DNA of 64,000 bases, taken from NCBI GenBank assembly GCA_015494395.1, contig WGBG01000167.1, positions 1-64,000 of the forward strand. Reading direction: 5' to 3'. Made by a program: the position numbers and the translations under genes. Each line of letters opens with the position of its first letter. Position 1 is the first letter of the stretch. This document shows, piece by piece, positions 1,545-54,887 of this stretch. The stretch comes from Deltaproteobacteria bacterium. GTDB taxonomy: Bacteria > Desulfobacterota > Dissulfuribacteria > Dissulfuribacterales > QOAL01. The notes beneath the pieces are model-generated. The model saw only the letters and a list, made by a program, of their open reading frames with translations. It searched no databases and had not been told where the DNA came from.

Positions 1545-1548
1545 GGAA

Positions 1549-3298: not shown

Positions 3299-3391
3299 AA
3301 CTTTTTCCTCATCTATGGTGCTTTTTTATTGGGAAATCACCTTGAATAATTTAATGAGCTGTATTGTCCAAGAAGTACAGACAACAAAATA

Positions 3392-4557: not shown

Positions 4558-6026
4558 GCACCCTCCTGAAAGAGATATTTCCCCAAATTGGGGCGGTTCA
4601 TTGCCCAGGCCTCAAGTTGCCTTGCCGTATCGGAAGGGCAGAACCTGTTGTACACGTCAAATCCCATACCCACAAATTGTGACCTTAATACTTGCAATTT
4701 TGCAGAGTCACCCGCAGTATTACATGCGTCCACCAGTGTTTGAAATAACGGTTCACATAACTGCCAGAATGTGCTGCTGGCCTGTGATGCAATGCCACTG
4801 CCTTCGGCTTTTTGGCTGGAATAGTAGCGCGTCACACATCCATAAATTATCCTGGCTATCCCCTCCAGAGCCTCCATCTCTTGCTGTAATTGATTCAACC
4901 AGACCTCTCCAACAGAACCAGCATCCATCCATACTTCTGACTCAACAAAATCATCATCACCAGCTACATACTGTTCTCCGGCATTGCTGCTGACTTTCAA
5001 TCCACCTGACCACACTCCGAAACAAGCTTCGGAAGTAATTGCTTTTGGAAGCGCTGTCCTGAGCTGAAAGCAGTCGAAAACTCCCCTGTCCTGTTTAATA
5101 AAACTAAGAAGGGCGGGCAGTTGACGCCACGGGCGTTTTTCAGGGTCAGCCCATAGTACCTTTGTTTTCTTTTTACTGGCATCTGCTGCAACTGTAGGGT
5201 CGTAAATTCCTTCGAGATAATTCAGGTGTTGAATTCCCTCTGAATAGTGAAAGCCATCCTGTTCAAAAAGCACAAATCGGCATACCGGCACCAGACGACC
5301 AATAAGTGACTGTTTCAGTTCTTCGGCTACAGGGCAACCCTCACCAAGCGGCATTTTCTCCCATGGCGGTGTTCCCACTCCCAATGACATCATGCCATAC
5401 TCCTGAAGCTCTTCGGTTGTGATAAGGTTGACCCAGACAGTTTTAACTATGGAGTCGCAGAGGACAAAACTATGAAGCAGCCCACGTGAAGCTACCGCAG
5501 GCCCGGGCTTTGCCGACTTTTTCTTACCTTTGTAACCAGGTGTCAAAACAATACTGTTGTCAACTTTTTTACCACCAAGTGCAAAAGCCATCAGACATAC
5601 AAGCAGTAATGCTTTTTCAGCATCATCAAGAGGCTGTTCCCTTTGCAAATCAAGAAGCAAGGTTGTATTTCCTGTGGCAACATCAGGTTTTACTGCGCCA
5701 TAACGCTGAAGAGCAGCCTTTTCAATCGCTGGCATCTGCAGAAACGGTTTTTCCCCATAAAGGAAAAAACTGTCATACCAATTTTCAAGATATTGTATGC
5801 ACTGATCTGCTAGGCCATCTGCTCCAAGTATCTTCCATTCATTCATATTGCTCACAGGAGCTGCAACCTGACCTATTGCCTGAAGTAATTTCATTACGGC
5901 TACTTTCTGCACGGGATTTCCACCCAGGGTTCTGTAACTGCCATTTTCAAAAACCTGCCTGAGGCTTGCAAGCCCTGCGTCAACTACAGGAATCCACGGA
6001 TTGTCAACAAGGTTAAAATTGGTCAT
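4554..6026 (-). CDS. cse1: Cascade large subunit Cse1 (CasA/Cas8e)
   Basis: 490 aa. The N-terminus NLVDNPWIPV matches the CasA NLLIDNWIPV motif. Position after cas3 and ATGA overlap with cas3. Confidence 0.88.
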   Translation of the reverse strand: MTNFNLVDNPWIPVVDAGLASLRQVFENGSYRTLGGNPVQKVAVMKLLQAIGQVAAPVSNMNEWKILGADGLADQCIQYLENWYDSFFLYGEKPFLQMPAIEKAALQRYGAVKPDVATGNTTLLLDLQREQPLDDAEKALLLVCLMAFALGGKKVDNSIVLTPGYKGKKKSAKPGPAVASRGLLHSFVLCDSIVKTVWVNLITTEELQEYGMMSLGVGTPPWEKMPLGEGCPVAEELKQSLIGRLVPVCRFVLFEQDGFHYSEGIQHLNYLEGIYDPTVAADASKKKTKVLWADPEKRPWRQLPALLSFIKQDRGVFDCFQLRTALPKAITSEACFGVWSGGLKVSSNAGEQYVAGDDDFVESEVWMDAGSVGEVWLNQLQQEMEALEGIARIIYGCVTRYYSSQKAEGSGIASQASSTFWQLCEPLFQTLVDACNTAGDSAKLQVLRSQFVGMGFDVYNRFCPSDTARQLEAWAMNRPNLGKYLFQEGA

Positions 6027-9414: not shown

Positions 9415-10227
9415 ATGCTGACATTCCTGGAAAATCTCGATCCTGACCTGAGCAAGGCGTTAATGGTTCAGATTCGCAATTTGTGGACCCATGCCTCAAC
9501 GGCCATAGAGGGAAACAGTCTTACCCTTGGGGAAACAGCCTTTGTACTTGAAGAGGGCTTGACGGTTGCGGGAAAACCCCTGCGGGATCATGAGGAGGTA
9601 GTGGGGTATGCAAGGGCCATTGATCTGATTTATCAGATTCTGCAGGAGGGGGGAAACCTGACAGAGGAAGCCCTCTTTGCCCTGCACAGGGCAGTGCAAA
9701 CCGAGGCTGTTTTTGATGTGTACAAGCCAATTGGTAAATGGAAAAATCAGCCCAATTCCACTGCTGCGGTGGTCAACGGCAGGCAGGTTATCTTTGAATA
9801 TGCCCTGCCCGTGGATGTCCCGGAACTGATGGGAAGGTGGTTTAACCTTTTTAATGAACTTGAAGATTCAATAAAACCGCAGGACTGGAACCAGGCACTT
9901 GAAGCTTACGTGTGCCTACATGTCTCTTTTGTCCGCATACACCCGTTTTTTGATGGTAATGGCAGGCTTGCAAGGCTTGTGGCAAATATTCCTGTTCTTA
10001 AGGCAGGGCTTCCTCCACTGATTATTCCAAGGGAACAGCGCCAGCAATATATTGAAGCCCTTTCACACTATCACTATGAAGTTGGGCAGGTGAAGGCAGG
10101 AGATGAACTTCTCCCGCAAAAGGAAAAACTGCTACACTTCACTGATTTCTGTAGGCAGGCATGGCACGCTACACGGGAACTGGTGGAAGCAGCCTATGAA
10201 AAACAAAGATTCAGGGAAAAACAGTGA
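9415..10227 (+). CDS. Fic-domain protein (AMPylase family) with intramolecular inhibitory motif
   Basis: 270 aa. Canonical Fic motif HPFFDGNGRLAR, plus an N-terminal STAIEGN that fits the (S/T)xxxE(G/N) inhibitory helix. Confidence 0.9.
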   Translation: MLTFLENLDPDLSKALMVQIRNLWTHASTAIEGNSLTLGETAFVLEEGLTVAGKPLRDHEEVVGYARAIDLIYQILQEGGNLTEEALFALHRAVQTEAVFDVYKPIGKWKNQPNSTAAVVNGRQVIFEYALPVDVPELMGRWFNLFNELEDSIKPQDWNQALEAYVCLHVSFVRIHPFFDGNGRLARLVANIPVLKAGLPPLIIPREQRQQYIEALSHYHYEVGQVKAGDELLPQKEKLLHFTDFCRQAWHATRELVEAAYEKQRFREKQ

Positions 10228-13693: not shown

Positions 13694-14617
13694 TTATTCC
13701 ATGCCGCTTGCTGAAACGCCGCACAGCCTCTCCATAATCTCCGCTGCCTCGGGATGTATCAAACCCGCCATTGCCGCAAGGGCTTTAACGAAAGTTACAG
13801 GAGACGGGCTGCAAATAATATCAGGGTTTACCGTATGAACCCTGCCTGCCTTTACTGCCTTCATCTGCCTGAAGCGCATCCATCGTTTACGTTCCCGGGC
13901 GGCAATCCCGGTTTCCGTACCCATAATTGCAATGATGATTACATCAGGGTCCATGGCAAGTACCTTCTCAAGGCTGGCATGACCGGTAAGCTGGTCTGCG
14001 ACTATGTTTTTTCCACCTCCAAGCCTTATGTAATCATCAGTAAATGAGTCATTCACAGAGGCAAAAAGCGGATTTGCCCCAACCTGAAGAAACACGCTCT
14101 GTCTGGAAAAACCGGAGCATGCATCGCTGATGCACTGGACCTTGCGTCTTACCTGTTTAACTATTGTCCGGGCCTCCTTGCCGCATCCCAGAAGCTCGCC
14201 CAGCCGTAACAGGTGGCTGCACAGGGCGTTAAATGAATCAGGTTTTTCAAACCTCACCACCCTTAAGCCCAGGCGCTTTAGTCCATACAGATCCCGTGGC
14301 TGTGTCAATCCGGTGGCAAGCACAATATCCGGCTTAAGCGCCACGATCTTCTCGAGGTTGATCTCCATGAGCGTACCCACCTTTTCCCGATTACGGGCCT
14401 CAGGGGGGCGCACGCAGTAAATGGTGTCCCCAACAAGCCGGCCTCCTGCGCCAAGGAGAAATACATTTTCCGTATTCAGTGGGCCAAGGGAAACAATGCG
14501 GTGCGGGTAGTCTGAAGAAGATGCGCTGGCCGGGACAGAGAGGAAAATGGCGGCAGCAATGAGGAAAACTGCCACCACTCCAGGGATGTTATGTACCACC
14601 CTGATCAGTAATCCCAC
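13694..14617 (-). CDS. Periplasmic substrate-binding protein, BtuF/FecB (cobalamin/siderophore) class
   Basis: 307 aa with a signal peptide (VVAVFLIAAAIFLSVPASA). RIVSLGPLNTENVFLLG...LKPDIVLA is typical of class III binding proteins. GTG start at 14617. Confidence 0.8.
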   Translation of the reverse strand: MGLLIRVVHNIPGVVAVFLIAAAIFLSVPASASSSDYPHRIVSLGPLNTENVFLLGAGGRLVGDTIYCVRPPEARNREKVGTLMEINLEKIVALKPDIVLATGLTQPRDLYGLKRLGLRVVRFEKPDSFNALCSHLLRLGELLGCGKEARTIVKQVRRKVQCISDACSGFSRQSVFLQVGANPLFASVNDSFTDDYIRLGGGKNIVADQLTGHASLEKVLAMDPDVIIIAIMGTETGIAARERKRWMRFRQMKAVKAGRVHTVNPDIICSPSPVTFVKALAAMAGLIHPEAAEIMERLCGVSASGME

Positions 14618-14730
14618 CGTAACCCCATGTAAAAGTTGATGCCCGGCATGGGATAACCCTTTACATAGGCATAGTTTTCGTCAAACAGGTTTCGTATCTC
14701 GGTCATCACCGATACGTCGCTATATGACCA
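14605..14730 (-). pseudogene. C-terminal stump of a TonB-dependent receptor
   Basis: The minus-strand frame reads WSYSDVSVMTEIRNLFDENYAYVKGYPMPGINFYMGLRWDY*. This aligns with the C-terminus of the intact receptor in this window (MLRVDNLFDKYYYEKKGFPKPGIAAYLSYRFEF*). An in-frame stop lies just upstream, at 14767-14769, and no receptor body precedes it. Confidence 0.7.
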
Positions 14731-14787
14731 TTTGTTAATCCTCATTGCCGTTAATGCGCTTAACAGTTAGCAAGTTTTTCTTGGAAC

Positions 14788-15146: not shown

Positions 15147-16019
15147 TCAATAATATTTCATAAGCTCCAGTACGCGTTCCAGCCGTTCCGCAAACATGTC
15201 ACTGACCTCAGGATACCAGCAAAGGCCCCTGTAGCACTTCTTGACGTGGCACTCCTGGCCGTGATGCTCAACAACAGGTATGTCAACCTGGCCGAAACCC
15301 ATCTCTTCAAGCCTTTTCCTCCAGCTATCCTCCTCTCCCATAAGGTCATCCATCACATGCAGCCCGGCTGTAAACATCACAGGGATTATACGCACTCCGG
15401 CACCTGACTCGCCCTGATGCTTCCTTGAAAGCATGGCAAACAGCGCGTCTGCATCGGGCACGCCCTCAACAGAGGCGGCATAAACGTTAGGGTAGAGGCC
15501 ACGGACCATCTGTTCAAGCCCAAGGTAAAGGGTATTTACAGGTTCGGCAGCAAGCGGAGAGCCGTGAAGCGCAAGGATGTTTATTCCCTGCTGATCCGGG
15601 AGGAACTCCGGTTCAATTATGGTGAGTACCTGCTTTACGAACTGCCAGCGGTGCATGAGTGTTTCGCCGACTATAATCCTAAGGCCGGGGAAAGATGCGC
15701 AGGTCTCAACAAGCTGTGTGTACTCGGTGCCAGGGAATATATGAAGCGGCTGGACCACTGCCTTTCTGTATCCCCTGCTCTCGAGACTGGAGAGTATCTC
15801 CCTTAGCCCTGGAAGATTCATCTTCCTCCTGATTATATCAGAGGTGTATGCCAGGAAGAGCTCGTATTCACTGAACCGCTCCTGCAGGCGCTGGTTGAAT
15901 TTTTCAATGCCCGCACCTGCCCTGGTGCTGGTTCCAAAGGCTGCAATGACTATTGCCGGTCTTTCTTCAAGGCTGGGCAGCCGCATTTTTCGCCCAATGT
16001 ATCCGAACTTGTCTATCAT
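15147..16019 (-). CDS. cbiK: Sirohydrochlorin cobaltochelatase CbiK-type (class II anaerobic chelatase)
   Basis: 290 aa. PAIVIAAFGTS...IEKF, LHIFPGTEY and a second His-containing half (LALHGSP, IPVMFTAGLHV) fit the CbiK/CbiX fold pattern. No evident signal peptide. Confidence 0.8.
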   Translation of the reverse strand: MIDKFGYIGRKMRLPSLEERPAIVIAAFGTSTRAGAGIEKFNQRLQERFSEYELFLAYTSDIIRRKMNLPGLREILSSLESRGYRKAVVQPLHIFPGTEYTQLVETCASFPGLRIIVGETLMHRWQFVKQVLTIIEPEFLPDQQGINILALHGSPLAAEPVNTLYLGLEQMVRGLYPNVYAASVEGVPDADALFAMLSRKHQGESGAGVRIIPVMFTAGLHVMDDLMGEEDSWRKRLEEMGFGQVDIPVVEHHGQECHVKKCYRGLCWYPEVSDMFAERLERVLELMKYY

Positions 16020-16091
16020 GGTTGATTCACCAGAAAATTCCGTATCTATTTAGCATCCTAAATGGTCCTGTTCTGGAGTGACTCCGCCTCA

Positions 16092-19000
16092 CTACACCTT
16101 CCGTGACATGCCGTAACCCGCAGCGCACACAAGGAGAAGCACAAACAAACCCGCAAGCCAGTCAACACCGGATGATGACATCTTGGCGTCATCCTGCTGC
16201 TCCTGCTCTATCTTTTCCATGCGGTATCCTTCAACTTCTCTTGATTCAACAGCCTTTTTACTGCTGATATCCTGCTGTTTTGTACCCCTGCCCTGCGCCT
16301 TTGGCACATCAGCGGTCCTGGCAGCGTCCCGGCCAGGGGCCTTTGCACTCCGGGCGCTCTGCCTTCCGGCGCTGGAAAGCTCTTCAAGCAGTCTCTTCCT
16401 GTCAAGCACCTGGTCTTCAAGGCTCTTTTTTGCCGCCTGTTCAACAGCCACCCTGAATTTTTCCGCTATTTCCGGAGACAACACGCCCGGCAGGGATATA
16501 AGGGCAGCTACCATCTGGTTCAGCATGGGATTATTGCAGGTATGGTCACAGCACGCCACCCCGTTTTCAACCACGTTTACCGCATACTGTGCTGCCAGCC
16601 GTTGTTTTATCCTGTCGTCAGCCTTCCAGTATCCCTTGCGTATCGCCTCCAGCATTCGGGCCGTTATTGACTGATATGCCCAGGGACTGGCACGCCTGAA
16701 GAAGTCATCCGTCTTGAGCCCGTACTTATCCTCCACGTAAACCTGGTACGATTCGTTCCACTTTGCCTGGTCCACCTTGTCAGGCGTGGTCACCTGCCAT
16801 CCCCAGAGGTACTCAAAGTAGTGGGCCATCTCCCTTGCCCCTGCATAATCTTCCTCCTGCATCGCCTTTATCCACTGGGGATTGAGATACCTGCTCCTGA
16901 TCTCGCGGCCAAGGGTCTTGGCCATGTCTTCCACCTTTACCTGTCCGGGTTTCTGCTGCTGCGTGACAAGAGTTTCCGGCGTATACCCGCTTTCATACCT
17001 GATTGCCATTGCAAGGCCGCCCAGGTACTGAAACATGTCATCGTTATCCAGCAGGCCGTAAACATTGGAGGAGCGTGAATGGAGAGCCACCTCAACGCCT
17101 GCAAGGTTCTCCCGCAGAAGTCCCCTTGCAGGAACTCCCCACCTGCCCTGACCAAATGCGTACCCAACACGGTTTTCGTAAACACCCACCACCTTGGCCT
17201 CATCCTCCCAGAGGCCCGAAGCCCCGGTCATTTCAGAGACACCTGTGCCATAAGCCCCGGGTTTTTCCGAAAATATGCGAAGCCTGCTCAGGGCCTCGGC
17301 CTCTTTTTCATCCAACCCCTTCCGGATCAGGCTGGCCCTGATCCGCCGGGTATTTAGCGCAATGAGATTTTCAATGTCGGTCTGTTTCATGGCAAGTTGC
17401 AGGGCCTGGTCGAGATATTCCAGCTTGTCAGGAAAAAGGTCGCGGTAGAGTCCGGAGGCATTGATCATTACGTCTATTCTGGGCCTTCCAAGCCTTGCCC
17501 CTGGTATTACCTCAAGGCCATCCACCCTTCCGGACGGAGACCACCTTGGCCTGACACCCATCAGGCTCAGTATTGTACATTCATTAACCCCCTCATTTCT
17601 CATGGTCTCTGTTGCCCACAGCACCACTGCCACCTTTGCCGGGTACCTGCCATGCTTCTTCACATAATCATCCACCATCTGGTCCGCTGCCCTGGCGCCA
17701 AGTTTCCATGCGGCAGCAGTGGGTATCCTGGAGGGATTAAAGCCATAAAAGTTGCGGCCAGTGGGTATTGCTCCGGGATTTCTCACAGGATCGTTTCCCT
17801 GTCCAGGCTCCACATACAGGCCGTTGAACCCTGCCAGCAGGGAATTAATCTCCGCAGGGCCCGAGGCCATCAGGCCATCTGTAATCCGTTTCCTGCTCTC
17901 CCCCGGGTTCCTTTTTACTATTGCTCCCGCCATCTCACTGGCATCATCCAGATCAGGACTCTTCCCGAAGGTGTGCAGCCCATCCGGCCTGAGATTTTCA
18001 TTTATCTCCTCCAGGTAGTGGCCAAGCACCCTTACTGCCTCATCATCTGCATTACCCACGCCCCTGTCAGGAAGCTCAGAGGCAATATCCGCCAGTATGC
18101 CGGTTTTCGTGGCAAGTTCCATAAGTTCCCTGAATTTTTCAGGGGCGGTAATGCTGGCCCTGGCCCGTGCACGCTCATACTCATCAACCAGCTCTGCCAT
18201 GCGGGCATACTCCTGGTAAAGCTCCACATCCTTGAGCATGGGCGTGAGGTGGGAAACAATAACCGCCCTGCCGCGCCTCTTTGCCTGTATCCCTTCACCC
18301 ACATCATCCACAATGTATGGATAGATATTTGGTATGTCTCCAATAAGCACCTCAGGGGGACATGAAGGTGAAAGCCCGGCCTGTTTTCCAGGATTCCATT
18401 CGTATGTGGCATGGGTGCCCAGGTGAACCATGACATCGGCCCTGAACTCCTTCTGGAGCCACAGGTAGGCGGCCAGGTACTGGTGATGGGGATATATGGA
18501 CGGGTCGTGATAGAGCTTCATGGGATCGTCTAACCAGCCCCTTGAAGGTTCCGGAAGAAGTACGCAGTTACCGCATAAAACCGCAGGGACAATAATATCA
18601 TTGCCGTCCCTCATTATGAACTGCTCCTCAGGCTCTCCCCACTGTTTTACAACTTCTTTCCTGAATGCCCGGGGAAGGGTGGCAAACCACTTCCGGTATG
18701 TGGAGACTGGTATCCTCACCACGTCAGGAGAACGCATGAGTTTCTCAAGTTCGCCCGGCGCCCATGAACCCACGTTTCTTGCAGAACTCAGGATAAGCTC
18801 CTTTATCTTTTGCCCTGACGGCAGCATGCCAACGTCATATCCCTGCCTGGAAAGGGCCTGCATTATGCTGGCAAGGCTTTCAAACACGTTCAGGTAGCTT
18901 GCCCCCACGTTCTGCTTTCCCTGGCTGTGGTTGTAGAACATCAGGGCAACGCGCCGGTTTTCAGGCGGTTTTTTGCCAAGCGCTATCCATTTGTGAAGCC

Positions 19001-20060
19001 TGGGTATGAGGTGGTCGAGGTTTTCATCAATGGTGACATTCAGGAAATATTCGCTGCCGCTCCGGCTGTCTGTCACTTCCTTTTTCCCTGAAAGTGGCGT
19101 TGGCTCAACAAGACCTGATATCTCCGGAGTGGCAATTGCCCAGGCGACTTCGCTTCCTGCGATACCAACCGGGCTTTTTCTCCACTCATCAACCGTGCCG
19201 TTAAATATGCTTATGGCATTAATAACTGGCACTCCCAGAGCATTCAGTTTTTTGGAAAGCTCAGGGGGCAGGGCAGAGTAGAACTTGAAGGTAAAGGCAA
19301 GGACCAGATCAACCCCTGGCCTTCCGGCGCTGTCAATTAGAAATCTCTCCAGCGTCTCCCTGTCACGCCCGAAACAGGGAATCACGTTAAATCCCTCATC
19401 TTCAAGCCTCTTTACTATCTTTTCAAGGGGTGCATCCTGCCCCGGCGTCATGAAGGAGGAGAAGAAGAGAAGGCCCACAAAGGGAGAATCCCTGTTGAAG
19501 CCAGGCCTTGATTCCAGCCAGGCCATGTATCTGTTAATATCCTGAAATACCCGTCCGGCCGCAGGATGAAATATGCCGGTTTGCGGCATCTTTACCACCG
19601 GGTCGTACTTTATCCCCTTGTCAAAATGACGATGGGCAACCAGCCTTAGCATGTTCCGTATGTTTTTCCTGCCGAGATTCGCATAGTATTCCGAGACCTC
19701 AGGGTCAAACAGGAAGCCCAGCTGTTCAAGCCTCTGGTCATCGGTTGAGCCCCTCAGGGCGTAAACCGTCTTGTCCAACGGGTTTACCGTGTTTTCAACA
19801 AATTCCTCAAGGCTGCTGCCCATTACATCAACCACGATGACCCGTGCTTTTTTGATCGCCTTTGAACACTGGTCCCTGCGCCTTTTTATGTCATTTGCAG
19901 AAATTACCTGCACCGTCACGCCCTGCATATCAAGGCCCTGCACGCTCCCCTGGACAAGAAAGGAGTTGTTGTCAATGACCAGCAGGGCAATATCCGCTCC
20001 GAAGGCTGCGGAAAACAGGCAGGGGAACAGCACTGCAAGTATGGCAACGGTCCTTTTCAC
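16092..20060 (-). CDS. CobN/Mg-chelatase-H family protein with N-terminal signal peptide and C-terminal membrane anchor
   Basis: 1322 aa with CobN-family similarity throughout (e.g. YLNVFESL, GTHATYEWNPGK, VLWATETMRNEG, INASGLYRD). N-terminus MKRTVAILAVLFPCLFSAAFGAD. C-terminus WLAGLFVLLLVCAAGYGMSRKV after a charged low-complexity linker. Confidence 0.88.
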   Translation of the reverse strand: MKRTVAILAVLFPCLFSAAFGADIALLVIDNNSFLVQGSVQGLDMQGVTVQVISANDIKRRRDQCSKAIKKARVIVVDVMGSSLEEFVENTVNPLDKTVYALRGSTDDQRLEQLGFLFDPEVSEYYANLGRKNIRNMLRLVAHRHFDKGIKYDPVVKMPQTGIFHPAAGRVFQDINRYMAWLESRPGFNRDSPFVGLLFFSSFMTPGQDAPLEKIVKRLEDEGFNVIPCFGRDRETLERFLIDSAGRPGVDLVLAFTFKFYSALPPELSKKLNALGVPVINAISIFNGTVDEWRKSPVGIAGSEVAWAIATPEISGLVEPTPLSGKKEVTDSRSGSEYFLNVTIDENLDHLIPRLHKWIALGKKPPENRRVALMFYNHSQGKQNVGASYLNVFESLASIMQALSRQGYDVGMLPSGQKIKELILSSARNVGSWAPGELEKLMRSPDVVRIPVSTYRKWFATLPRAFRKEVVKQWGEPEEQFIMRDGNDIIVPAVLCGNCVLLPEPSRGWLDDPMKLYHDPSIYPHHQYLAAYLWLQKEFRADVMVHLGTHATYEWNPGKQAGLSPSCPPEVLIGDIPNIYPYIVDDVGEGIQAKRRGRAVIVSHLTPMLKDVELYQEYARMAELVDEYERARARASITAPEKFRELMELATKTGILADIASELPDRGVGNADDEAVRVLGHYLEEINENLRPDGLHTFGKSPDLDDASEMAGAIVKRNPGESRKRITDGLMASGPAEINSLLAGFNGLYVEPGQGNDPVRNPGAIPTGRNFYGFNPSRIPTAAAWKLGARAADQMVDDYVKKHGRYPAKVAVVLWATETMRNEGVNECTILSLMGVRPRWSPSGRVDGLEVIPGARLGRPRIDVMINASGLYRDLFPDKLEYLDQALQLAMKQTDIENLIALNTRRIRASLIRKGLDEKEAEALSRLRIFSEKPGAYGTGVSEMTGASGLWEDEAKVVGVYENRVGYAFGQGRWGVPARGLLRENLAGVEVALHSRSSNVYGLLDNDDMFQYLGGLAMAIRYESGYTPETLVTQQQKPGQVKVEDMAKTLGREIRSRYLNPQWIKAMQEEDYAGAREMAHYFEYLWGWQVTTPDKVDQAKWNESYQVYVEDKYGLKTDDFFRRASPWAYQSITARMLEAIRKGYWKADDRIKQRLAAQYAVNVVENGVACCDHTCNNPMLNQMVAALISLPGVLSPEIAEKFRVAVEQAAKKSLEDQVLDRKRLLEELSSAGRQSARSAKAPGRDAARTADVPKAQGRGTKQQDISSKKAVESREVEGYRMEKIEQEQQDDAKMSSSGVDWLAGLFVLLLVCAAGYGMSRKV

Positions 20061-22165
20061 TGCTGCTCTCCCTGCTTAACCGGACTGGTAATGGCTGACA
20101 CCGGGACTGTGTACCCCTTATGCTCCATCCGATACATTGCCCCTGCCATAATGGCAGAGAGACCAGAGGCCACAAGCGGTGGCAACCCGCTTAAAAAAGG
20201 GATATTCAAACTCCGGAAGCCGCTCCCCTTTCCGCTGGCGATACGCTTATATACCGCATGCGACCATGTACTCATTGAAGCAATGTCACATACAAGGCCG
20301 CGCTGGAACGCATCGCCTGCAGCCATCAGGGCTTCCAGGTACCCGGCATAGAACGGATCAAGGAGCAGGCTTTCAACCTCCTGGAAAAGCACTGTGCCCT
20401 CATCCCTGTCTCCTGCCGCCTCCATACAGGCCTGCCACAGGTCAATCTTCCGTTCCCGGAGACGCTGGAACACATTGCGGTTTCCGGTAAAACCGTTCTG
20501 CATGTGGACAGCCTCCTGAACTCCCTGATAAACCGCGCGGGCTATTAGGGTGCCAAGGCGGGAATGACCGCCGGACGAATCAACGCGCGGACCGCCCCCC
20601 TGAACCACAATAATATTATCTGTGCCGGTGCCTGTGGCCTGGTTTTCAAGCGGGGTGTAGCTTGAGCGTATGTCAAGGTCCTGCAAGGCTGCGCTCTTTG
20701 CCTCGGTTGCGGTTATAATGGCCCTGGTCATGGCCCTTTCGGTAAGTTTGAGGTTTGTAAGAATAAGTATGTTTATTGTGCCGGGCTTGCTGCCGGAATG
20801 CCCGGACTGTGATCCTGCCCCGGCAAGCTCATAGAATTTGCCAGTATCCGCTGACATTCGAACCGCATTGCTGGATACCCCTGCGGTAACCAGGGCCACC
20901 ACCTGCATTTCCTTGAATCTGCGGGTTGTTACAGCCAGATTATCCATGTTCGCGCCTGTAAACAGCAGGGAGGTTGAGGCAGGATCAAGCCCAAGCACGC
21001 GCATGGTATCGCGCCGCAGGGCGTCAAGACCCTGTCTGTGGCCAAGTCCCCAGGCAGGAGGGGGAAAGTAGTTGTTGCCTATGACACTTATGTTTTCACG
21101 CATCCCCTCCAGGGTTGAAACAACCTTCATGGGGCGGCTCAAGTGCACCACCACGGCCTTGTTCCTGAAATCCTTGATGTCAGCAGAGACCACCTCGGCC
21201 TTCTTTACGCACGGAAGCCCTGCAGACAACTCCTTTCTGCCAACAACCTGCTCTGGCAGTACAAAATTTTCAGGGTTTGAAAATTCATCCCTGTAGAGGC
21301 GCGAGGAGAGCCATGCCACGAAATAGCCGGTATGGGCAGCTGCCCTGCATGTAAGCTCGCAGGGAAAGAAATATATCCGGTTGTTTTTTACCGCATCCAC
21401 ATTCTTCCAGCCCGGCCTGTGCAGCAGCCTGAGGATGGCCCGGTCGCCCCCGCACCCATATAGCACCTGGGGATTGAACTCCTGCCACTCCTCAAGCGAC
21501 ACCGGCACCACAGCCCCCTTTTCGCCCAGGTCCGGAGCAATGCCACCGGCAGCCTCCACGTACTCTTTCTGGAAGGAATCATCCCCCGGCGTCATGACTT
21601 GCCCCCGTCCCATGAGTCTCATGACCCGCACCCTTTTTTCCCTGGGAATCAGCGCGGTTTTGCGTCTTATGAGGTCAAGGAGCCGCTTCTGTTCTGCAAC
21701 AACCTCACCTGCCCTTGCCTGGCATCCGAATATCCTTCCCAGCAGGTTGATGTGCCTGAAGCTGTCCCCTATTGACCGTGGAGAAAGATTAACCAGTACA
21801 CAGCGGCCCCTGAACTGGCTCACCACCTCTCTTTGCAGGTCGGTATAAAAGATAAGATCAGGGTTGATGCCCGCGATTTTCTCCGTATCAGGATAAAAAA
21901 ATCCGCCTGTAATCACCTTGTCTGCCGCCTGTGGAGGCAGAATCGAGTGGTATGTAATTCCGACCACGGCATCTCCGGCCCCTATTGTCAGAAGAATCTC
22001 GGTAACACCCGGAACCAGTGAGACCACCCGTCTTGGCTGGCGCTCAAGGCAGATGGTCTTTCCTGCCGAATCCGTGAATGTCAATGGAAATGCCCCAAGA
22101 GCAAAAGATGGGATAAACAAGAACAACAGCGATACCACTGCCACAAAATGATTTGTTTTTTTCAT
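20057..22165 (-). CDS. Fusion protein: BtuF-like periplasmic binding domain + CbiZ-like adenosylcobinamide amidohydrolase domain
   Basis: Start taken at MKKTNHFVAVVSLLFLFIPSFALGA (signal peptide). About aa 30-300 look like a class III binding protein (RRVVSLVPGVTEILL...INPDLIF). The C-terminal half has GTINILILTN...ITATEAKSAALQDLDI...ATGTGTDNIIVV, typical of CbiZ. ATGA overlap with the CobN-like gene. Confidence 0.75.
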   Translation of the reverse strand: MKKTNHFVAVVSLLFLFIPSFALGAFPLTFTDSAGKTICLERQPRRVVSLVPGVTEILLTIGAGDAVVGITYHSILPPQAADKVITGGFFYPDTEKIAGINPDLIFYTDLQREVVSQFRGRCVLVNLSPRSIGDSFRHINLLGRIFGCQARAGEVVAEQKRLLDLIRRKTALIPREKRVRVMRLMGRGQVMTPGDDSFQKEYVEAAGGIAPDLGEKGAVVPVSLEEWQEFNPQVLYGCGGDRAILRLLHRPGWKNVDAVKNNRIYFFPCELTCRAAAHTGYFVAWLSSRLYRDEFSNPENFVLPEQVVGRKELSAGLPCVKKAEVVSADIKDFRNKAVVVHLSRPMKVVSTLEGMRENISVIGNNYFPPPAWGLGHRQGLDALRRDTMRVLGLDPASTSLLFTGANMDNLAVTTRRFKEMQVVALVTAGVSSNAVRMSADTGKFYELAGAGSQSGHSGSKPGTINILILTNLKLTERAMTRAIITATEAKSAALQDLDIRSSYTPLENQATGTGTDNIIVVQGGGPRVDSSGGHSRLGTLIARAVYQGVQEAVHMQNGFTGNRNVFQRLRERKIDLWQACMEAAGDRDEGTVLFQEVESLLLDPFYAGYLEALMAAGDAFQRGLVCDIASMSTWSHAVYKRIASGKGSGFRSLNIPFLSGLPPLVASGLSAIMAGAMYRMEHKGYTVPVSAITSPVKQGEQQ

Positions 22166-22254
22166 ACCTAAGTTCCTAACTTCTCCTGGCTTCTCAATAA
22201 GCCCGCACAAAGATGCCTGTATCTGCTTACAGGAGGCCGCAGATACCTCAGGTC

Positions 22255-22590
22255 CTATTCCGGCACGTACACCATGGTGCCGTCTCCAAGGCGGTAGGCA
22301 GTTCCAAGCCTCTGGCCCCTGCCACTGGTTTTGGCCCTGGAGACACGCATGGCCTCTATCTTCCTGCCTTTTTTTACTATAATTTCCATGTCTCCTTCCC
22401 CTGTCTGCCTGGTAATTGTCACGGTGGAGTCCTCTTTTAAAAGGTCCTCCAGGTGATACGTGGCAAAGAGGACAAGGAGCAGCCCTACGATAAAGACAAG
22501 CCCGATATCAAAGAGATTGGCCAGGCCGGTCATGGGATCATTATCGGAAAATCCGGTGCCCCGGTCCTGTTTACGCCTGAGATATTTCAT
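22255..22590 (-). CDS. Small bitopic membrane protein (DUF2149-like by recollection; ExbD-like topology)
   Basis: 111 aa. DPMTGLANLFDIGLVFIVGLLLVLF is a single TM segment followed by a soluble domain. ATGA overlap with the upstream MotA/ExbB gene. Confidence 0.65.
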   Translation of the reverse strand: MKYLRRKQDRGTGFSDNDPMTGLANLFDIGLVFIVGLLLVLFATYHLEDLLKEDSTVTITRQTGEGDMEIIVKKGRKIEAMRVSRAKTSGRGQRLGTAYRLGDGTMVYVPE

Positions 22591-23180
22591 TCATCCTGCC
22601 TCCCGTGTCCATGCTCAATTATCTCAGCCACAAGCTCCATGTTCTTTATGTCCTCTTCAATCCATCTGCGCCGGACAGTGAAAAAACAGTAAGCTGCAAG
22701 GCCAAGCGCCATTCCGACCACAGTTGTGGTAAAAGCTATGACAAGGTCTCCGGAGAGCCTGCTTATGTCACCCTGGCCAAGAGAGGCCAGCCCTGTACCC
22801 ATGGGTATCAGCGTACCTATGAGACCCAGGCCCGGTCCTATACGGATCAGCATTTTAAGCCCGTCCAGGGACTTCCACATGCGGTGTTCCATCTCCCGCA
22901 ACAGGTTCAGTACCGCGATTTCCCTGTGGTCATCATGGGCGATAGCAAGGAGTTTGTCTGCAAAGGCCCGGACATCGGCGGGAAATGCCGAAAATCCCTT
23001 CTCGGATGCAGTGGCCAGCGGGTCTGGTTTGAGCCGCCGCCTCGAAAGCCACATGCTGAAAAAATGCCCGCTGTACACAACTGTCCATAACGTAAGCAGG
23101 CACAGCAGGAGCAGCACAGGAAAAAGTAGAGATGAAGAAACCAGGTAAATAAACGATTTAAGAAATGCCGTCAGTTCCAT
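22587..23180 (-). CDS. MotA/TolQ/ExbB-family proton-channel protein
   Basis: 197 aa. IGPGLGLIGTLIPMGTGLASLG...LVIAFTTTVVGMALGLAAYCFF matches the ExbB/TolQ signature region. Confidence 0.8.
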   Translation of the reverse strand: MELTAFLKSFIYLVSSSLLFPVLLLLCLLTLWTVVYSGHFFSMWLSRRRLKPDPLATASEKGFSAFPADVRAFADKLLAIAHDDHREIAVLNLLREMEHRMWKSLDGLKMLIRIGPGLGLIGTLIPMGTGLASLGQGDISRLSGDLVIAFTTTVVGMALGLAAYCFFTVRRRWIEEDIKNMELVAEIIEHGHGRQDE

Positions 23181-23938
23181 TCCACTTTCTCCCTTGCTCT
23201 GCGGTTCTGCCGCTCCATGATTATCCCGATGCCAAAGGCCGCCGCTGCCCCGGCAACCAGCCAGGCAAGCTGATCTGCCCCAGGGCCACTGACAACACCA
23301 CCCTTGCTCAACCTGTAAATCCTCTTTGCATCATCAAAATGGGGAACAATGGCAATGGTCAGAAGAAAGTAGAGAGACAGCATTATCATGACAGTGCCGA
23401 GGCGGCGTTCCGCCCCGGCCCCATTGTTGAAAAACGCAAAAAATGCAGCGGATGCCAGCCCCATCACCACGAAAAGCACTGAGAGCAGAGGGAAAAGCAG
23501 GGCTGGTCCGGGCGAAAGTTTATCCAGCAGTGCGCCTGATAAAAAGATCACCGCAAGGCAGCCCGGGCATGGCGCAACCAGCGCCATCCATGCCCTGGTT
23601 TTTCCTGCTCCACTGCCATCCTTACAACGGTTGGGGAAGAGCAGGGCAGCACCCCAGGCAAACAGGATGGCCACCATGATAAAATGGAAGGCCATTATTC
23701 CCCTGAAGATAGAATCCAGGCTTTCAAGCCATGCAAGGGGATTAAACTTCTTAATTCCAAGCCATGCCACTGCAAATACCAGCAGGTAGAGCACAGCCCA
23801 GGCCAACGCCACACCGGCCTTCTGCAGCACGGTTTTTCTGCTGGAGAGCAGGTACGAAAGCCCTGCTCCGCTCTTTGCCGCAAATACTCCAAATGAAAAC
23901 AGCAATCCCAGTATCAGTGTTTTTGTTTCCATGATCAA
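23171..23938 (-). CDS. Polytopic inner-membrane protein (DUF2162-like predicted transporter by recollection)
   Basis: 255 aa with about 7 hydrophobic segments and a PCPGC motif. Overlaps both neighbours (4 nt and 10 nt). Confidence 0.65.
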   Translation of the reverse strand: MIMETKTLILGLLFSFGVFAAKSGAGLSYLLSSRKTVLQKAGVALAWAVLYLLVFAVAWLGIKKFNPLAWLESLDSIFRGIMAFHFIMVAILFAWGAALLFPNRCKDGSGAGKTRAWMALVAPCPGCLAVIFLSGALLDKLSPGPALLFPLLSVLFVVMGLASAAFFAFFNNGAGAERRLGTVMIMLSLYFLLTIAIVPHFDDAKRIYRLSKGGVVSGPGADQLAWLVAGAAAAFGIGIIMERQNRRAREKVEWN

Positions 23939-26040
23939 AACTCGAAACGGTAACTGAGATATGCGGCTATGCCCGGTTTTGGAAAGCCCTTTTTCTCGTA
24001 ATAGTACTTATCAAACAGGTTATCCACCCGGAGCATTACCCGGTGGTGATCCAGGAATGTAGCCCCCATCACCAGGTCGGCCACTGTAAAGCACGGGTAA
24101 CAGATAACCGGGTATCCGACCGCATTCCAGTCATAATCCTTCATGGTGCCCTGGCTTCTGAAATGGAGCCTTGCGTCGAACATTCCATCGTCGTACATGA
24201 GACCGTAGTTCACGGTGTATGTCGCCACATTGTGTATGTCTTCCCAGTTATCCCTGCTGTTCTCCTCCTCGGCACGTATCATCCAGGTGGCATTTGTAAA
24301 AAGGCTTATTGACCGGTTCCAGTCCAGGTACTTCCCAAAGTCCCACTGCAGCTCCCACTCCATGCCATCCATCCTTGCGCTGAGGCTGTTCTCGTAGGTG
24401 GTGACATTTCCGTTTTTCAGCCTGGTTATCTTGTCATCAACCTCGGTGTGGAAATAGGTCATGTCGAAATTCAGGGCCAGAGCCGGATTTTCATACCCGA
24501 GGCCAAAATCAAATGTAAGTGAGGTTTCAGGGTCCAGATCAGGATTTCCCTTTGTGATCATGGTAACTCCGCCTACCACCCTTTCGGAGTAGCCGGCGAG
24601 CTGCGCTGCGGCAGGAGGGACAAAGGCCTGTCCCAGGGTAGTATGCACGCGCAAACCGTTATCGAACAGGTAATTTACGCCTCCCCTTGGGCTGAACTGG
24701 GAGAAATCGTCTGAACCAGGGATGAAATCCGTTTTGTACGGCGTCTTTCTGGTCTCAACATCAAAGGTGTCGTAGCGTCCGCCTGCAGTTACTGTCAGCC
24801 GCTCATCCATGAAGCGCCAGATGGTTTCTACATAGCCCGCCCAGTTTTCCCTGCTCTCATCGGGGGAATAGGGTGCCTTGCGGCTGCCGTCCAGATTATA
24901 GCTCCTGCTTGTCCGGTCAATATCCTGCCAGTCAAAACCCGCTACTATACGGTGTATCCCCCAGTCATACTGGTTCTTCACCTGAACCCCGGTCCAGTAG
25001 ATGTCATAGTCATAACTGCGGTACGGGCTTACCTCCACTGGAGAGGACCAGCCATAGTAGCGCTTGTAATATTCCGATGATTCTCCGGTGTGGTAGGCTG
25101 TGATATCCAGGCGGTAGTCACGGGTAACCTGGCCGCCAAGCCGGAAGTCAACCCCGTAACGGTCAATATCCTTGTATCCGCTCCTGGCATCTCCATCAAA
25201 GGTGTCGCCTGGCGTTTCAATGTCCCTGCCCTGGTAACCATCAACTGTCAGATCCGTGCGCCAGTGGCTTCCTATGTCCATTCCGAGATGGAAGGAACCG
25301 TCACGTGTAATAAAACCCGTGTGTTTCCTCTCTTCACCATTGCCCATCTCGATATCACCGGCCTGTTCGTACCGCCTTGCTGCAATATCAAGGTCCAGAT
25401 TTTTCCATATCCTTCCCCCAATACCTCCTTTCTGAAAGTTGGTGCGGAAAGATCCGAAACCTGCCTCGGCCCTTCCGGCAAGTGTGCCGGTATTCCTGCG
25501 GGTGATCACGTTGATCACGCCCCCCATTGCCTCGCCGCCGTAAAGTGATGAGGCAGGCCCTTTGAGCACTTCAATACGCTCAATATTGTCTGACGTTATG
25601 GTGGCAAGGTTGGTTGCGCCAGCAGGCCTGCCATTAATCAGGATCAGTGAATGTTTGGTGATCCCGGAAAATTCAGGTCTGAAGCCCCTTATTCCGATAC
25701 CTGCCAGGGCACCCGGGTATTCAATTACCCCGATTGATGAATTTTTCTTGAGCTGTTCGGTTATGGTCTCACCTGAGGTAAGCTCAATTTCCTGACGGTC
25801 AATTACCTCAACCTTGGCAGGAATTTCCCGAATTTCCTCAGGGCTCCTGGTGGCAGTGACAACCATCTCTTCCAGTTGCTCTACCTTGGCAGACTCAGAG
25901 GCAGATTCAGAATAGGGCCGACCATCTTCTGACGCAGACGCATGGACAGGATTCAGAATGAACAGTAAGGCAAAAACAGCAAGGCAGGTGCGGCTGCACC
26001 CGCGTTTCAGAAGGGAAAGACTGGATGGGTGATGTGACAT
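23935..26040 (-). CDS. TonB-dependent outer-membrane receptor (BtuB-like, riboswitch-controlled)
   Basis: 701 aa. Signal peptide, plug start EEMVVTATR, GGVINVITR, and the C-terminal barrel motif DNLFDKYYYEKKGFPKPG...YRFEF. AAGGAGG RBS. Confidence 0.9.
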   Translation of the reverse strand: MSHHPSSLSLLKRGCSRTCLAVFALLFILNPVHASASEDGRPYSESASESAKVEQLEEMVVTATRSPEEIREIPAKVEVIDRQEIELTSGETITEQLKKNSSIGVIEYPGALAGIGIRGFRPEFSGITKHSLILINGRPAGATNLATITSDNIERIEVLKGPASSLYGGEAMGGVINVITRRNTGTLAGRAEAGFGSFRTNFQKGGIGGRIWKNLDLDIAARRYEQAGDIEMGNGEERKHTGFITRDGSFHLGMDIGSHWRTDLTVDGYQGRDIETPGDTFDGDARSGYKDIDRYGVDFRLGGQVTRDYRLDITAYHTGESSEYYKRYYGWSSPVEVSPYRSYDYDIYWTGVQVKNQYDWGIHRIVAGFDWQDIDRTSRSYNLDGSRKAPYSPDESRENWAGYVETIWRFMDERLTVTAGGRYDTFDVETRKTPYKTDFIPGSDDFSQFSPRGGVNYLFDNGLRVHTTLGQAFVPPAAAQLAGYSERVVGGVTMITKGNPDLDPETSLTFDFGLGYENPALALNFDMTYFHTEVDDKITRLKNGNVTTYENSLSARMDGMEWELQWDFGKYLDWNRSISLFTNATWMIRAEEENSRDNWEDIHNVATYTVNYGLMYDDGMFDARLHFRSQGTMKDYDWNAVGYPVICYPCFTVADLVMGATFLDHHRVMLRVDNLFDKYYYEKKGFPKPGIAAYLSYRFEF

Positions 26041-26164
26041 TTAGGCATTCCTCCTTAGCTCCTCGTAATGGTTTCCACGGTACGGAGATAAGTGCGCACC
26101 GTCCCTGACAGAGGAAATAAAGTCGGAATACCGGAGCACGTTATCCCGATCCGCGGGGATATGC

Positions 26165-26345
26165 TCTTGCCTTCAGACAGGTCTTCTGACTTCCGGATCG
26201 TCCACAGTGGCTGCCGCCTTCCCACAGTTCACATAAAACTGCAGTGGCGTATTGGCAGCCCGTGTCCCCGGTTACAGCGGCGGGCCCGTCCCGGATTCTC
26301 ACCGGGTTCCCTTTAAGGAGCTGTCCCAAAAACAGGCTGGACAGC
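26165..26345 (-). promoter_or_regulatory. Cobalamin (B12) riboswitch
   Basis: The minus strand reads ...TTAAAGGGAACCCGGTGAGAATCCGGGACGGGCCCGCCGCTGTAACCGGGGAC...CGCCACTGCAG...CTGTGGGAAGGCGG...AAGTCAGAAGACCTGTCTG (B12 box at 26174-26191). These blocks match the conserved Cbl-riboswitch core (compare E. coli btuB AGGGAATCCAGTGCGAATCTGG...GCAGCGGTAAGG...CACTGCC...GGGAAG...GAAGACCTGCC). Confidence 0.88.
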
Positions 26346-40595: not shown

Positions 40596-40650
40596 TGAAG
40601 GTATAAGTTTGAGAAATCAGGCTGTTTTATTGAGTAGCAGGAGGCATTAA

Positions 40651-44774: not shown

Positions 44775-44885
44775 TCATTAATAAGTTGTATCTGCTATTT
44801 TTAGTAATTTATGGCTGGCTGCTAAATTTAGATAAATTGTTAATGATATAGAATAGCACAGATTAAGTAATATTAGAAAAATAAT

Positions 44886-54872: not shown

Positions 54873-54887
54873 TTTGGGCATTCCTCA

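Follow-up and report, generated by a model that had tools for sequence, protein, structure and literature searches.

The closest characterised relatives of the locus described here are the heme acquisition operons of Bacteroidota, such as hmuYRSTUV of Porphyromonas gingivalis, with genes for a hemophore and a receptor, for a CobN-like and a membrane protein, and for proteins of the MotA/ExbB and DUF2149 families (PMC11681262, PMC10434189). In 2025, HmuS of Bacteroides thetaiotaomicron was demonstrated to act as a membrane-bound heme dechelatase that removes the iron (Nath et al., PMC12583661; PDB 9D26); HmuT, HmuU and HmuV are uncharacterised in the literature (PMC13227078; also PMC12583661). 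HmuU and HmuV have been drawn as energising the receptor HmuR (PMC10100974, PMC12583661), and HmuT and HmuV have been termed 'diagnostic of heme transport' (PMC10100974), HmuV-family proteins also being present in Methanomicrobia, organisms that lack an outer membrane (PMC10100974, Table 3). Here we describe a related operon, headed by a cobalamin riboswitch, in a 64,000-nucleotide stretch (the window) from a Deltaproteobacteria bacterium of the Desulfobacterota (assembly GCA_015494395.1, contig WGBG01000167.1, positions 1 to 64,000). We consider it likely that the operon encodes a corrinoid-directed scavenging system of the Hmu/BtuS type, in which a second stator, formed by a MotA-like and a DUF2149 protein, serves the CobN-like protein and not the receptor.

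Related systems under B12 control have been noted before. As cited in PMC6460266, the name 'BtuS' for B12-regulated CobN-like genes goes back to Rodionov et al. (2003), who predicted a role in metalloporphyrin salvage. The BtuS1 operon of Bacteroides fragilis includes cbiK, and a btuS1 btuS2 double mutant grows more poorly on heme-iron than either single mutant (PMC6460266), which hints at a contribution from the BtuS1 paralogue as well; since cbiK neighbours BtuS1, we infer that BtuS1 belongs to the B12-type branch. Mesle et al. (2023) reported HmuY-less hmu-like operons with a cobalamin riboswitch, possibly cobalamin-related (PMC10100974), and Wagner et al. (2012) a cobN-exbB-exbD-tonB cluster on plasmid pSZ77 of Geobacter lovleyi (T. 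lovleyi), with a role distinct from CobNST that was called unknown (PMC3403914). As T. lovleyi is a de novo B12 producer whose genome lacks CobS/CobT (PMC3403914), its CobN-like protein is not the chelatase of B12 biosynthesis. In the NCBI annotation, the pSZ77 cluster reads riboswitch-TBDR-DUF2162-MotA-DUF2149-CobN-ExbB-ExbD-TonB-TBDR (TBDR, TonB-dependent receptor) amid cobalamin biosynthesis genes. The window thus shares its core with a cultured isolate, and differs from pSZ77 in that the plasmid has a canonical ExbB-ExbD-TonB set and a second receptor, and no BtuF-CbiZ, CbiK-like or BtuF2 gene at the site.

With the 'BtuS' systems the window shares a CobN homologue apart from CobN/ChlH, a cobalamin element, TonB-dependent receptors and a nearby cbiK; 'BtuS' proteins are likewise predicted to be periplasmic and membrane-attached, and a salvage role related to metalloporphyrins or cobalamin has been proposed for them. 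The window system differs in belonging to Desulfobacterota and in its BtuF-CbiZ fusion and DUF2162 partner, which are absent from those papers (the 2003 work as far as it is cited in PMC6460266). We file it under the 'BtuS'-type category, with presumed orthology to BtuS1. The kind of system is already known from comparative genomics (2003, 2012, 2023), and new in the window is the Desulfobacterota variant with a periplasmic BtuF-CbiZ protein and DUF2162. The novelty claimed in a first-pass annotation of the window hence stands for the function, which is unsolved in the literature, and not for the kind of system, given those earlier descriptions and the dechelatase activity of HmuS.

The cobalamin riboswitch aptamer (RF00174; 26365..26159, minus strand) scores 95.2 bits in cmscan (E = 2e-22) against an Rfam gathering score of 31.5 bits, and is matched over the full length of the model including the B12 box (model positions 1-189 of 189). 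It is the sole Rfam match in the 64-kb window and lies, as annotated at first pass, in front of a single operon. The receptor gene starts 118 nt after the aptamer end, and the intervening expression platform (26041..26158, minus strand) holds a hairpin hiding the Shine-Dalgarno sequence AAGGAGGA, with UAUUCCGACUUUAUUUCCUC paired with GAGGAGCUAAGGAGGAAUGCC in the minimum free energy fold of the leader (-53.5 kcal/mol, z = -2.46). No intrinsic terminator was found between the aptamer and the start codon; a terminator-type platform was hence rejected, and Shine-Dalgarno sequestration fits better. Because the Shine-Dalgarno sequence is buried in the hairpin, the leader suggests translational OFF control, i.e. 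repression by B12 at the level of translation.

Seven open reading frames (ORFs) with Pfam assignments follow 3' of the riboswitch in the same direction on the minus strand, encoding a TonB-dependent receptor, a DUF2162 protein, a MotA-like protein, a DUF2149 protein, a BtuF-CbiZ fusion, a CobN-like protein and a CbiK-like protein, in agreement with the identities and the 4-10-nt overlaps first annotated. The overlaps are 4 nt (genes 1-2), 10 nt (2-3), 4 nt (3-4) and 4 nt (5-6), and the intergenic gaps about 45-90 nt (genes 4-5) and 72 nt (genes 6-7). The kinship with the Porphyromonas hmu locus suggested at first pass holds, as hmuRSTUV likewise comprises a TonB-dependent receptor, a CobN-like protein, a membrane protein, MotA/ExbB and DUF2149 (PMC11681262), and a receptor, an exported and anchored CobN-superfamily protein, MotA/ExbB and DUF2149 share one operon also in the hmu operons compared here (Prevotella nigrescens, B. 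finegoldii). The window differs from hmu in having a B12 riboswitch instead of iron control, in its gene order (R-T-U-V-...-S versus R-S-T-U-V), in its partner DUF2162 with a PCPxC motif in place of HmuT, and in the additional BtuF-CbiZ, CbiK-like and BtuF2 genes. There is no HmuY gene between riboswitch and receptor and no member of that family among the scanned ORFs, and the heme-type hmu operons examined carry no cobalamin riboswitch.

Relatives of the CobN-like protein number in the hundreds, at 50-62% identity and nearly all from Desulfobacterota. One scan of species-representative genomes yielded 335 relatives, of which 80, together with Desulfobacula toluolica, form a set of 81 loci in which gene presence was assessed by phmmer with the window proteins. 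The DUF2162-MotA-DUF2149 trio lies beside the CobN-like gene in 64 of the 81, the exceptions being mostly truncated contigs; 50 loci include a receptor, 21 have the full set of seven gene types, and several reproduce the exact gene order of the window. The arrangement is not due to chance. The riboswitch recurs as well: it precedes the homologous cluster in all eight relatives tested with Rfam, and a covariance model built from the riboswitches of those eight loci (R1), which gives the window aptamer 143 bits, returned 80 matches in 82 sources. Of the 58 loci whose upstream sequence is intact, at least 39 (about 50 by eye) have an R1 match immediately before the first gene of the cluster. Because of this recurrence, B12 control is a defining trait of the clade. 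In some loci, two cobalamin riboswitch matches stand in tandem 5' of one cluster (L048, 2500-2755 and 2872-3033; L081, 3245-3493 and 3610-3771); further pairs are seen in L064 (1033-1220 and 1339-1525) and, weakly, in L086 (8014-8206 and 8307-8479).

The CobN-like protein (1322 aa; 20060..16092, minus strand) is a 'BtuS-type' member of the CobN/HmuS superfamily (Pfam CobN-Mg_chel, 1080 bits). It combines a signal peptide, MKRTVAILAVLFPCLFSAAFGA, with a C-terminal transmembrane helix, and of 118 full-length homologues, 116 have a hydrophobic C-terminus; a periplasmic location with tethering to the inner membrane via the C-terminal helix is therefore a well-supported prediction. Overall similarity does not single out one relative, since the scores against structures in the PDB are near-equal (HmuS 478, CobN 470 and 460, ChlH 421 bits) and the protein falls below all NCBIfam equivalog cut-offs (NF004645, 986 with a cut-off of 1619; TIGR02257, 683 with a cut-off of 822). 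The superfamily motif HFG(T/A)HG, with the equivalent of HmuS His-538, is kept as HLGTHA at residue 546 in the 478-bit alignment to 9D26, corresponding to the form HxGTH(G/A) shared with HmuS.

The cavity motif points elsewhere. It reads LLDNDDMFQYLGG in the window protein and LDNDDFFQYLGG in T. lovleyi, compared with LLDSDDYYQFEGG and ADSDDYFQYHGG in the solved CobN proteins 9UK9 and 7C6O (M. tuberculosis), so that the pattern LLD(S/N)DDxxQ(F/Y)xGG is shared with CobN, whereas heme-type HmuS (Prevotella, B. finegoldii) has LSLDHVYEFMGG. The HmuS family motif LSLDHxxEFMGG is not found: the window protein reads GLLDNDDMFQYLGG, with Asp for His-1209 and Gln for Glu-1212, and HmuS His-254 aligns with the Tyr of FKFYSAL, the Met-79 region lying outside the alignment. 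The Met-rich insertion of domain IV is also absent, as the alignment jumps from residue 682 to 922 in HmuS and from 699 to 725 in the query, and the methionine content is 2.7%, versus 4.1-4.6% in HmuS. Hence, the cavity appears to differ from HmuS exactly where a non-heme substrate would predict. A Cys-containing region at the C-terminus, past the point where the solved CobN proteins stop, in turn aligns with HmuS. It carries the clade motif CCDHTCNN in the window protein (CCDHxCNN in 101 of the 118 homologues), the combination of LDNDD and CCDHTCNN being common to T. lovleyi; no such Cys motif is present in the HmuS proteins of Prevotella and B. finegoldii, which read LSLDH. From CobN, a cytoplasmic protein of the same fold family that needs the AAA+ partners CobS/CobT and ATP, the window protein differs in being exported and anchored, in the additional C-terminal region and in its neighbours, no CobS/CobT-like gene being found among the scanned window ORFs. 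Judged by these sequence features, the CobN-like protein is a hybrid of HmuS topology and a CobN-type cavity motif.

The receptor (701 aa with signal peptide; 26040..23935, minus strand) had been described as non-canonical, but comprises a plug (PF07715, 1.5e-21), a barrel (PF00593, 1.3e-43) and a TonB box read from the sequence as EEMVVTATR, i.e. by its domains it is a canonical TonB-dependent transporter. It scores below every curated NCBIfam cut-off; the top profile is TonB-hemin of the heme/hemoglobin subfamily (240 bits, cut-off 317), the BtuB models are far from reached (TIGR01779, 153 bits with a cut-off of 599.7; NF007926, 110 with a cut-off of 836), and the PDB sequence matches are CirA, FhuA, PhuR and BtuB.

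Corrinoid handling is indicated by the BtuF-CbiZ protein (22210..20057, minus strand), in which a BtuF-like domain (Peripla_BP_2, 9e-21, residues 62-283) is followed by a CbiZ domain (PF01955, 3e-53, residues 357-564) at 181 bits, over the Pfam threshold, the NCBIfam CbiS score being 75 bits. Its start is likely M16 (about 22165), which provides the signal peptide MKKTNHFVAVVSLLFLFIPSFALGA; gene callers place the start at 22138. The CbiZ domain thus lies behind a signal peptide and a binding-protein domain, unlike the characterised CbiZ, a cytoplasmic enzyme whose substrates are adenosylated corrinoids. A CbiZ-domain gene, mostly as a BtuF-CbiZ fusion, is present in 54 of the 81 loci, and in L030 (2045 aa), L058 (1982 aa), L066 and the database protein P0094 BtuF-CbiZ is joined in frame to the CobN-like protein. 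These fusions retain one N-terminal signal peptide, the CobN-like protein's own having disappeared. Because they are fused in frame, BtuF-CbiZ and the CobN-like protein are expected to act together in one compartment, which at the sequence level ties the CobN-like enzyme to periplasmic corrinoid handling. An apparent DUF2149-BtuF-CbiZ fusion in L053 was discarded as an artefact of a masked N/X run.

The CbiK-like protein (290 aa; 16019..15147, minus strand) has a Pfam CbiK domain (1e-34, 120 bits) and scores far below the curated cut-off of NCBIfam SiroCoChCbiK (NF047852, 82 bits against 400), and is therefore a divergent class II chelatase. As it has no signal peptide, it is predicted to be cytoplasmic; its N-terminus carries a conserved HGYIGRKMR motif. 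CbiK is present in 35 of the 81 loci, with homologues recorded in L003, L005, L010, L011, L013, L015, L026, L028, L032, L033, L040, L055 and L059.

A second BtuF-like periplasmic binding protein (BtuF2; 307 aa with signal peptide; 14617..13694, minus strand; Peripla_BP_2, 5.6e-27; NCBIfam BtuF, 108 bits with a cut-off of 234) follows further downstream. Because eight related loci (L003, L013, L015, L032, L040, L042, L050 and L055) place BtuF2 immediately after CbiK, it is very probably the eighth and last gene of the operon. Export of all three proteins, BtuF-CbiZ, CobN-like and BtuF2, is well supported by their predicted signal peptides. The gap of about 530 nt between CbiK and BtuF2, where relatives have further transport genes, holds the remnant of a decayed TonB-dependent receptor, a 46-codon ORF (14605..14745, minus strand) in the ORF listing that corresponds to the last ~40 residues, NLFDENYAYVKGYPMPGINFYMGLRWDY, and aligns in blastx with the C-terminal ends of receptors of related loci (E = 2e-15, 67% identity). 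This suggests a lost second receptor gene and a recent decay or rearrangement at this position.

Compared with canonical B12 import through BtuB, TonB-ExbB-ExbD and BtuFCD with CbiZ (E. coli, Rhodobacter sphaeroides), the window likewise has a riboswitch-controlled receptor, BtuF-like proteins and a CbiZ domain, and its relatives also carry TonB-ExbBD and FecCD permeases. The window system differs in its receptor, which does not reach the BtuB model, and in its exported, BtuF-fused CbiZ, and the canonical pathway has no place for the CobN-like, MotA-like, DUF2149 and DUF2162 proteins.

The first of these membrane proteins, DUF2162 (253-255 aa; 23938..23171, minus strand; PF09930, 7.7e-31), is a polytopic inner-membrane protein with seven predicted helices, the fourth of which has a PCPxC motif (P123-C124-P125-G-C127) at its start. 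Of 144 family representatives, 138 carry PCPxC, and its conservation across 66 locus homologues is at least 95%. The family is small, with 340 clusters at 50% identity among 1.84e9 representatives, and the taxon names recovered for distant relatives are Lentisphaeria and Victivallales. An AF2 model (pLDDT 88, pTM 0.76) has no fold match in the PDB (best E = 0.28), and the membrane side of PCPxC was assigned by our own positive-inside reading of this model. Prevotella HmuT gives no DUF2162 match in Pfam at E <= 1 and lacks PCPxC, and hhalign relates the two with a probability of 33% over the C-terminal half only, so that DUF2162 and heme-type HmuT would be at best remote relatives.

The MotA/ExbB-family stator subunit (197 aa; 23180..22587, minus strand; PF01618, 1.7e-12, 47.6 bits) is HmuU-like, Prevotella HmuU scoring 39 bits; canonical ExbB proteins of related clusters reach 95 bits and form a group apart from the MotA-like proteins. 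Its neighbour is a bitopic DUF2149 protein of the HmuV family (111 aa; 22590..22255, minus strand; PF09919, 9e-30; Prevotella HmuV is DUF2149 at 2e-34), with one transmembrane helix, an invariant Asp28 in ANLFDxGLVF and a small beta-rich periplasmic domain. The DUF2162 and DUF2149 families had been named correctly at first pass, and the description given there of the small membrane proteins as uncharacterised in role agrees with the literature (PMC12583661, PMC13227078). The ExbD-like topology then assigned to the 111-aa protein also stands, together with a resembling transmembrane Asp motif, but no homology to ExbD/TolR (PF02472) is detectable: Pfam returns DUF2149 alone, a PDB profile search finds no ExbD/TolR, hhalign against ExbD of the same loci gives a probability of 0.5% and aligns only ANLFDI with APLIDM, and Foldseek returns no matches with the DUF2149 AF2 model, itself of low confidence (pLDDT 64). 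Identification of DUF2149 as ExbD was hence rejected.

The scan of the 37 large window ORFs yielded no TonB_C, ExbD or FecCD domain, and the sole ABC importer of the window (53802-57145, plus strand) is of an unrelated type. The absence of TonB, ExbD and a BtuCD-type permease was thus noted correctly at first pass; the interpretation that DUF2162 and DUF2149 stand in for them is not upheld, because the canonical genes coexist with the module in clusters of relatives and on pSZ77. Clustering of the remaining ORFs of all 81 loci recovered canonical ExbB in 24 loci, ExbD (PF02472) in 20, TonB in 13 and all three in 12, in the same cluster as MotA-like/DUF2149/DUF2162; a FecCD permease is present in six, and DUF3450 and TPR proteins also occur. 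In loci with the gene order of the window, e.g. L032 and L050, the ExbB/ExbD/TonB genes follow BtuF2 on the same strand. Since relatives encode these genes in the cluster, and the window shows gene decay at that very position, the absence of TonB and ExbD here is a lineage feature, and the puzzle of missing parts replaced by unknown proteins dissolves when the relatives are viewed.

Six loci carry B12-regulated TonB energiser systems beside their CobN-like clusters, with an own B12 riboswitch directly 5' of DUF3450-ExbB-ExbB-ExbD-TonB(-TPR) in L059 (1969-2167), L060 (6686-6870), L067 (6652-6836), L070 (6759-6943), L071 (724-906) and L074 (5279-5460). As canonical ExbB/ExbD/TonB coexist with it, the module does not replace the TonB system. 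When gene order shifts, the position of the MotA-like/DUF2149 pair tracks the CobN-like gene and not the receptor, and the second stator probably serves the periplasmic CobN-like protein. Two side observations concern cluster content. A small DUF4019 protein whose N-terminus is signal-like, of a family found in seven loci (positions checked in L001 and L016) and absent from the window, stands right after the CobN-like gene in D. toluolica (L001, 13949-14386) and L016 (14037-14552). A plasmid of the betaproteobacterium Diaphorobacter sp. HDW4A (L089, 147-10324) carries TBDR-CobN-like-TBDR-hypothetical-MotA-(unannotated DUF2149)-ABC transporter with no riboswitch and a third variant of the cavity motif, LTTDDPFQYLGG; because of this plasmid, the module is wider than the heme and B12 branches.

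As a tentative overall interpretation, we propose that the operon encodes a B12-repressed envelope system that would scavenge cobalt tetrapyrroles, by analogy the counterpart, for cobalt, of the heme-iron Hmu system of Bacteroidota; the scavenging-and-remodelling role for corrinoids or metalloporphyrins suggested at first pass is reasonable. At low cobalamin, the riboswitch most likely permits translation of the operon, and the receptor needs for its energy a TonB/ExbB/ExbD set, which in this genome must lie elsewhere. Imported corrinoids would be caught by the BtuF domain and relieved of their nucleotide loop by the fused CbiZ in the periplasm. The trimmed corrinoid would then be handed over to the CobN-like enzyme, where cobalt might be pulled from the ring as HmuS pulls iron from heme, a step that we regard as possible but doubtful. 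Since the periplasm has no ATP and there is no CobS/CobT, the CobN-like protein would use a proton-driven stator, with the MotA-like/DUF2149 pair driving cobalt removal, possibly along with a thiol or metal relay via the PCPxC motif of DUF2162. Co(II) would subsequently enter the cytoplasm for insertion into the cell's own sirohydrochlorin by the CbiK-like chelatase, while intact usable cobamides would instead pass via BtuF2 to a BtuCD-type importer.

Cobalt removal is favoured by the HmuS analogy, by the fusions and the CobN-type pocket, by the linkage to CbiK and by the ecology of cobalt-poor sulfidic sediments; the characterised homologue HmuS, whose topology and MotA/DUF2149 neighbours are the same, is a demonstrated dechelatase (PMC12583661). 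The occurrence of the HmuV family in Methanomicrobia would further point to a second stator that does not serve a receptor (PMC10100974). Other considerations weigh against this proposal. The CobN-like pocket may be equally compatible with mere binding of a corrin or with metal insertion, and importing cobyric acid would pay a salvager more than destroying it. Cobalt in the corrin ring is kinetically very inert, and to our knowledge no enzyme takes cobalt out of a corrin. Moreover, CbiZ is missing beside the core cluster in 27 of the 81 loci and CbiK in 46, so that neither is obligatory, and the relation of DUF2149 to ExbD is not demonstrable by PDB profile search, Foldseek or hhalign. In T. 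lovleyi, Co(II) is already catered for by CbiMNQO, encoded on pSZ77 itself (PMC3403914), and in the published view HmuU/HmuV simply energise the receptor (PMC10100974). In its boldest form, the proposal would make the operon the first known machinery to strip cobalt from corrinoids, a periplasmic, anchored 'reverse cobaltochelatase' acting on CbiZ-trimmed corrinoids, powered by MotA/DUF2149 and with DUF2162 as an electron or metal conduit, for which corrinoids would be the cobalt ore of B12-producing anaerobes in sulfidic habitats, and by extension the target of HmuU/HmuV would be the dechelatase and not the receptor; taken as a whole, we regard this as unlikely.

Alternatively, the operon may serve salvage and remodelling without metal chemistry, the receptor importing corrinoids, BtuF-CbiZ trimming these to cobyric acid, the CobN-like protein acting only as a high-affinity corrin holder or hand-off protein in the periplasm and DUF2162 with MotA-like/DUF2149 as a proton-driven, BtuCD-independent translocon for incomplete corrinoids. 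CobN by nature binds corrin and the window protein retains the CobN-type motif, a FecCD permease is nearby in only six of the 81 loci, the Pfam label of DUF2162 is 'predicted transporter', salvage is far cheaper than de novo synthesis, and CbiZ remodelling beside btu genes is established in R. sphaeroides, as cited in PMC8620254. We nevertheless hold this to be rather unlikely, as a chelatase fold of 1,300 residues with strictly conserved cavity motifs is excessive for a holder when BtuF already binds twice in the operon, the linked cytoplasmic chelatase is left unexplained, BtuC-type permeases are present in clusters of some relatives, and HmuS, the sole relative that has been characterised, works as an enzyme rather than as a carrier (PMC12583661). 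The coexisting stators bear on a further possibility, that MotA-like/DUF2149 are a dedicated ExbB/ExbD pair energising the receptor with TonB from elsewhere, DUF2162 being an accessory. The published HmuU/HmuV assignment (PMC10100974, PMC12583661), the MotA_ExbB match in Pfam, the ExbD-like size and topology of DUF2149, whose invariant transmembrane Asp motif aligns with that of ExbD, the TonB box of the receptor and the lack of another ExbBD within the 64 kb all speak for it. However, two energisers would be redundant in at least 12 loci with canonical ExbB-ExbD-TonB in the same cluster (24 with ExbB) and on pSZ77, the canonical set is often in the same transcription unit or under an own B12 riboswitch, and the HmuV family occurs in Methanomicrobia, an archaeal argument that rests on PMC10100974 and PMC12583661. 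As the pair also follows the CobN-like gene across gene orders and DUF2149 is without detectable ExbD homology, we judge a receptor-energising role distinctly improbable.

The PCPxC motif raises the question of metal transport, a conserved intramembrane CPxC being typical of soft-metal sites. Uptake of inorganic cobalt or a small cobalt chelate, with the receptor importing Co, the CobN-like protein as a periplasmic cobalt-binding metallochaperone, DUF2162 as a Co(II) channel in the inner membrane and CbiK as the first consumer, would account for this motif and for the 27 loci whose core cluster lacks CbiZ, and would fit the scarcity of free cobalt in sulfidic habitats and the linkage of a B12 riboswitch with cbiK, a classic signature in the prediction of cobalt transporters (PMC7689651). 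It is very unlikely in view of BtuF-CbiZ, which is present in two thirds of the loci and in some fused to the CobN-like protein and thus provides a corrinoid tie, of a receptor closest to tetrapyrrole (heme) receptors, of the CobN fold, which binds a macrocycle, and of the fact that a cobalt-specific TonB-dependent receptor has never been confirmed (PMC7689651). Ordinary Hmu heme-iron acquisition that happens to have a B12 riboswitch is, finally, barely credible: the gene kinship with hmuRSTUV, the heme/hemoglobin family as top profile of the receptor and the impaired growth of the B. fragilis btuS1 btuS2 double mutant on heme-iron (PMC6460266) are compatible with it, but the HmuS-defining residues (His-1209, Glu-1212, His-254) are replaced, the Met-rich insertion and HmuY are missing, the partner is DUF2162 and not HmuT, the CbiZ and BtuF domains are corrinoid-specific, and control is by B12 and not iron, as opposed to the riboswitch-free heme-type operons. 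A heme-iron function was hence rejected on motif, partner-gene and regulatory grounds.

The remainder of the window contains type I-E cas genes, housekeeping genes, giant surface proteins and the unrelated ABC importer. Downstream apgM, which passes its NCBIfam subfamily cut-off, and an NMN-adenylyltransferase gene were considered as operon members and rejected, as they have the look of housekeeping genes and an opposite-strand PHP-domain gene separates them from BtuF2. The type I-E CRISPR-Cas genes (Cas3, Cse1, Cse2, Cas7, Cas5, Cas6e-like and Cas1; 669-8647, minus strand) adjoin a gene for a Fic/DOC-family protein (9415-10227, plus strand); no tandem repeat array was found within the window, and the CRISPR array presumably lies before the window start. 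Three huge secreted or surface proteins are encoded in tandem (36033-51258, plus strand), a PKD/FG-GAP/FlgD-Ig protein of 1520 aa, an RHS-repeat protein with DUF6531 of 1264 aa and a MAM/reelin-repeat protein of 1932 aa. The ABC importer genes (substrate-binding protein, fused permease and ATPase) are followed by one for a ChrB_C-domain protein (53802-57687, plus strand).

In conclusion, the system is common among sulfate-reducing bacteria, and present in the cultured, tractable isolates T. lovleyi SZ, Desulfobacula toluolica and Desulfosarcina variabilis. Independently of the cobalt reading, the coexistence of TonB-ExbB-ExbD and the module in one operon challenges the assumption that HmuU/HmuV energise HmuR, as well as the view of HmuT/HmuV as 'diagnostic' (PMC10100974), and provides the Bacteroides heme field with a testable alternative for HmuU/HmuV-type stators. 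Should cobalt harvest prove true, MotA/ExbB-type proton motors would have a new use, the driving of a periplasmic enzyme in place of a flagellum or an outer-membrane receptor. It would also reveal an unrecognised fate of B12 analogues in nature and a new cobalt source for anaerobes where sulfide removes the free ion.

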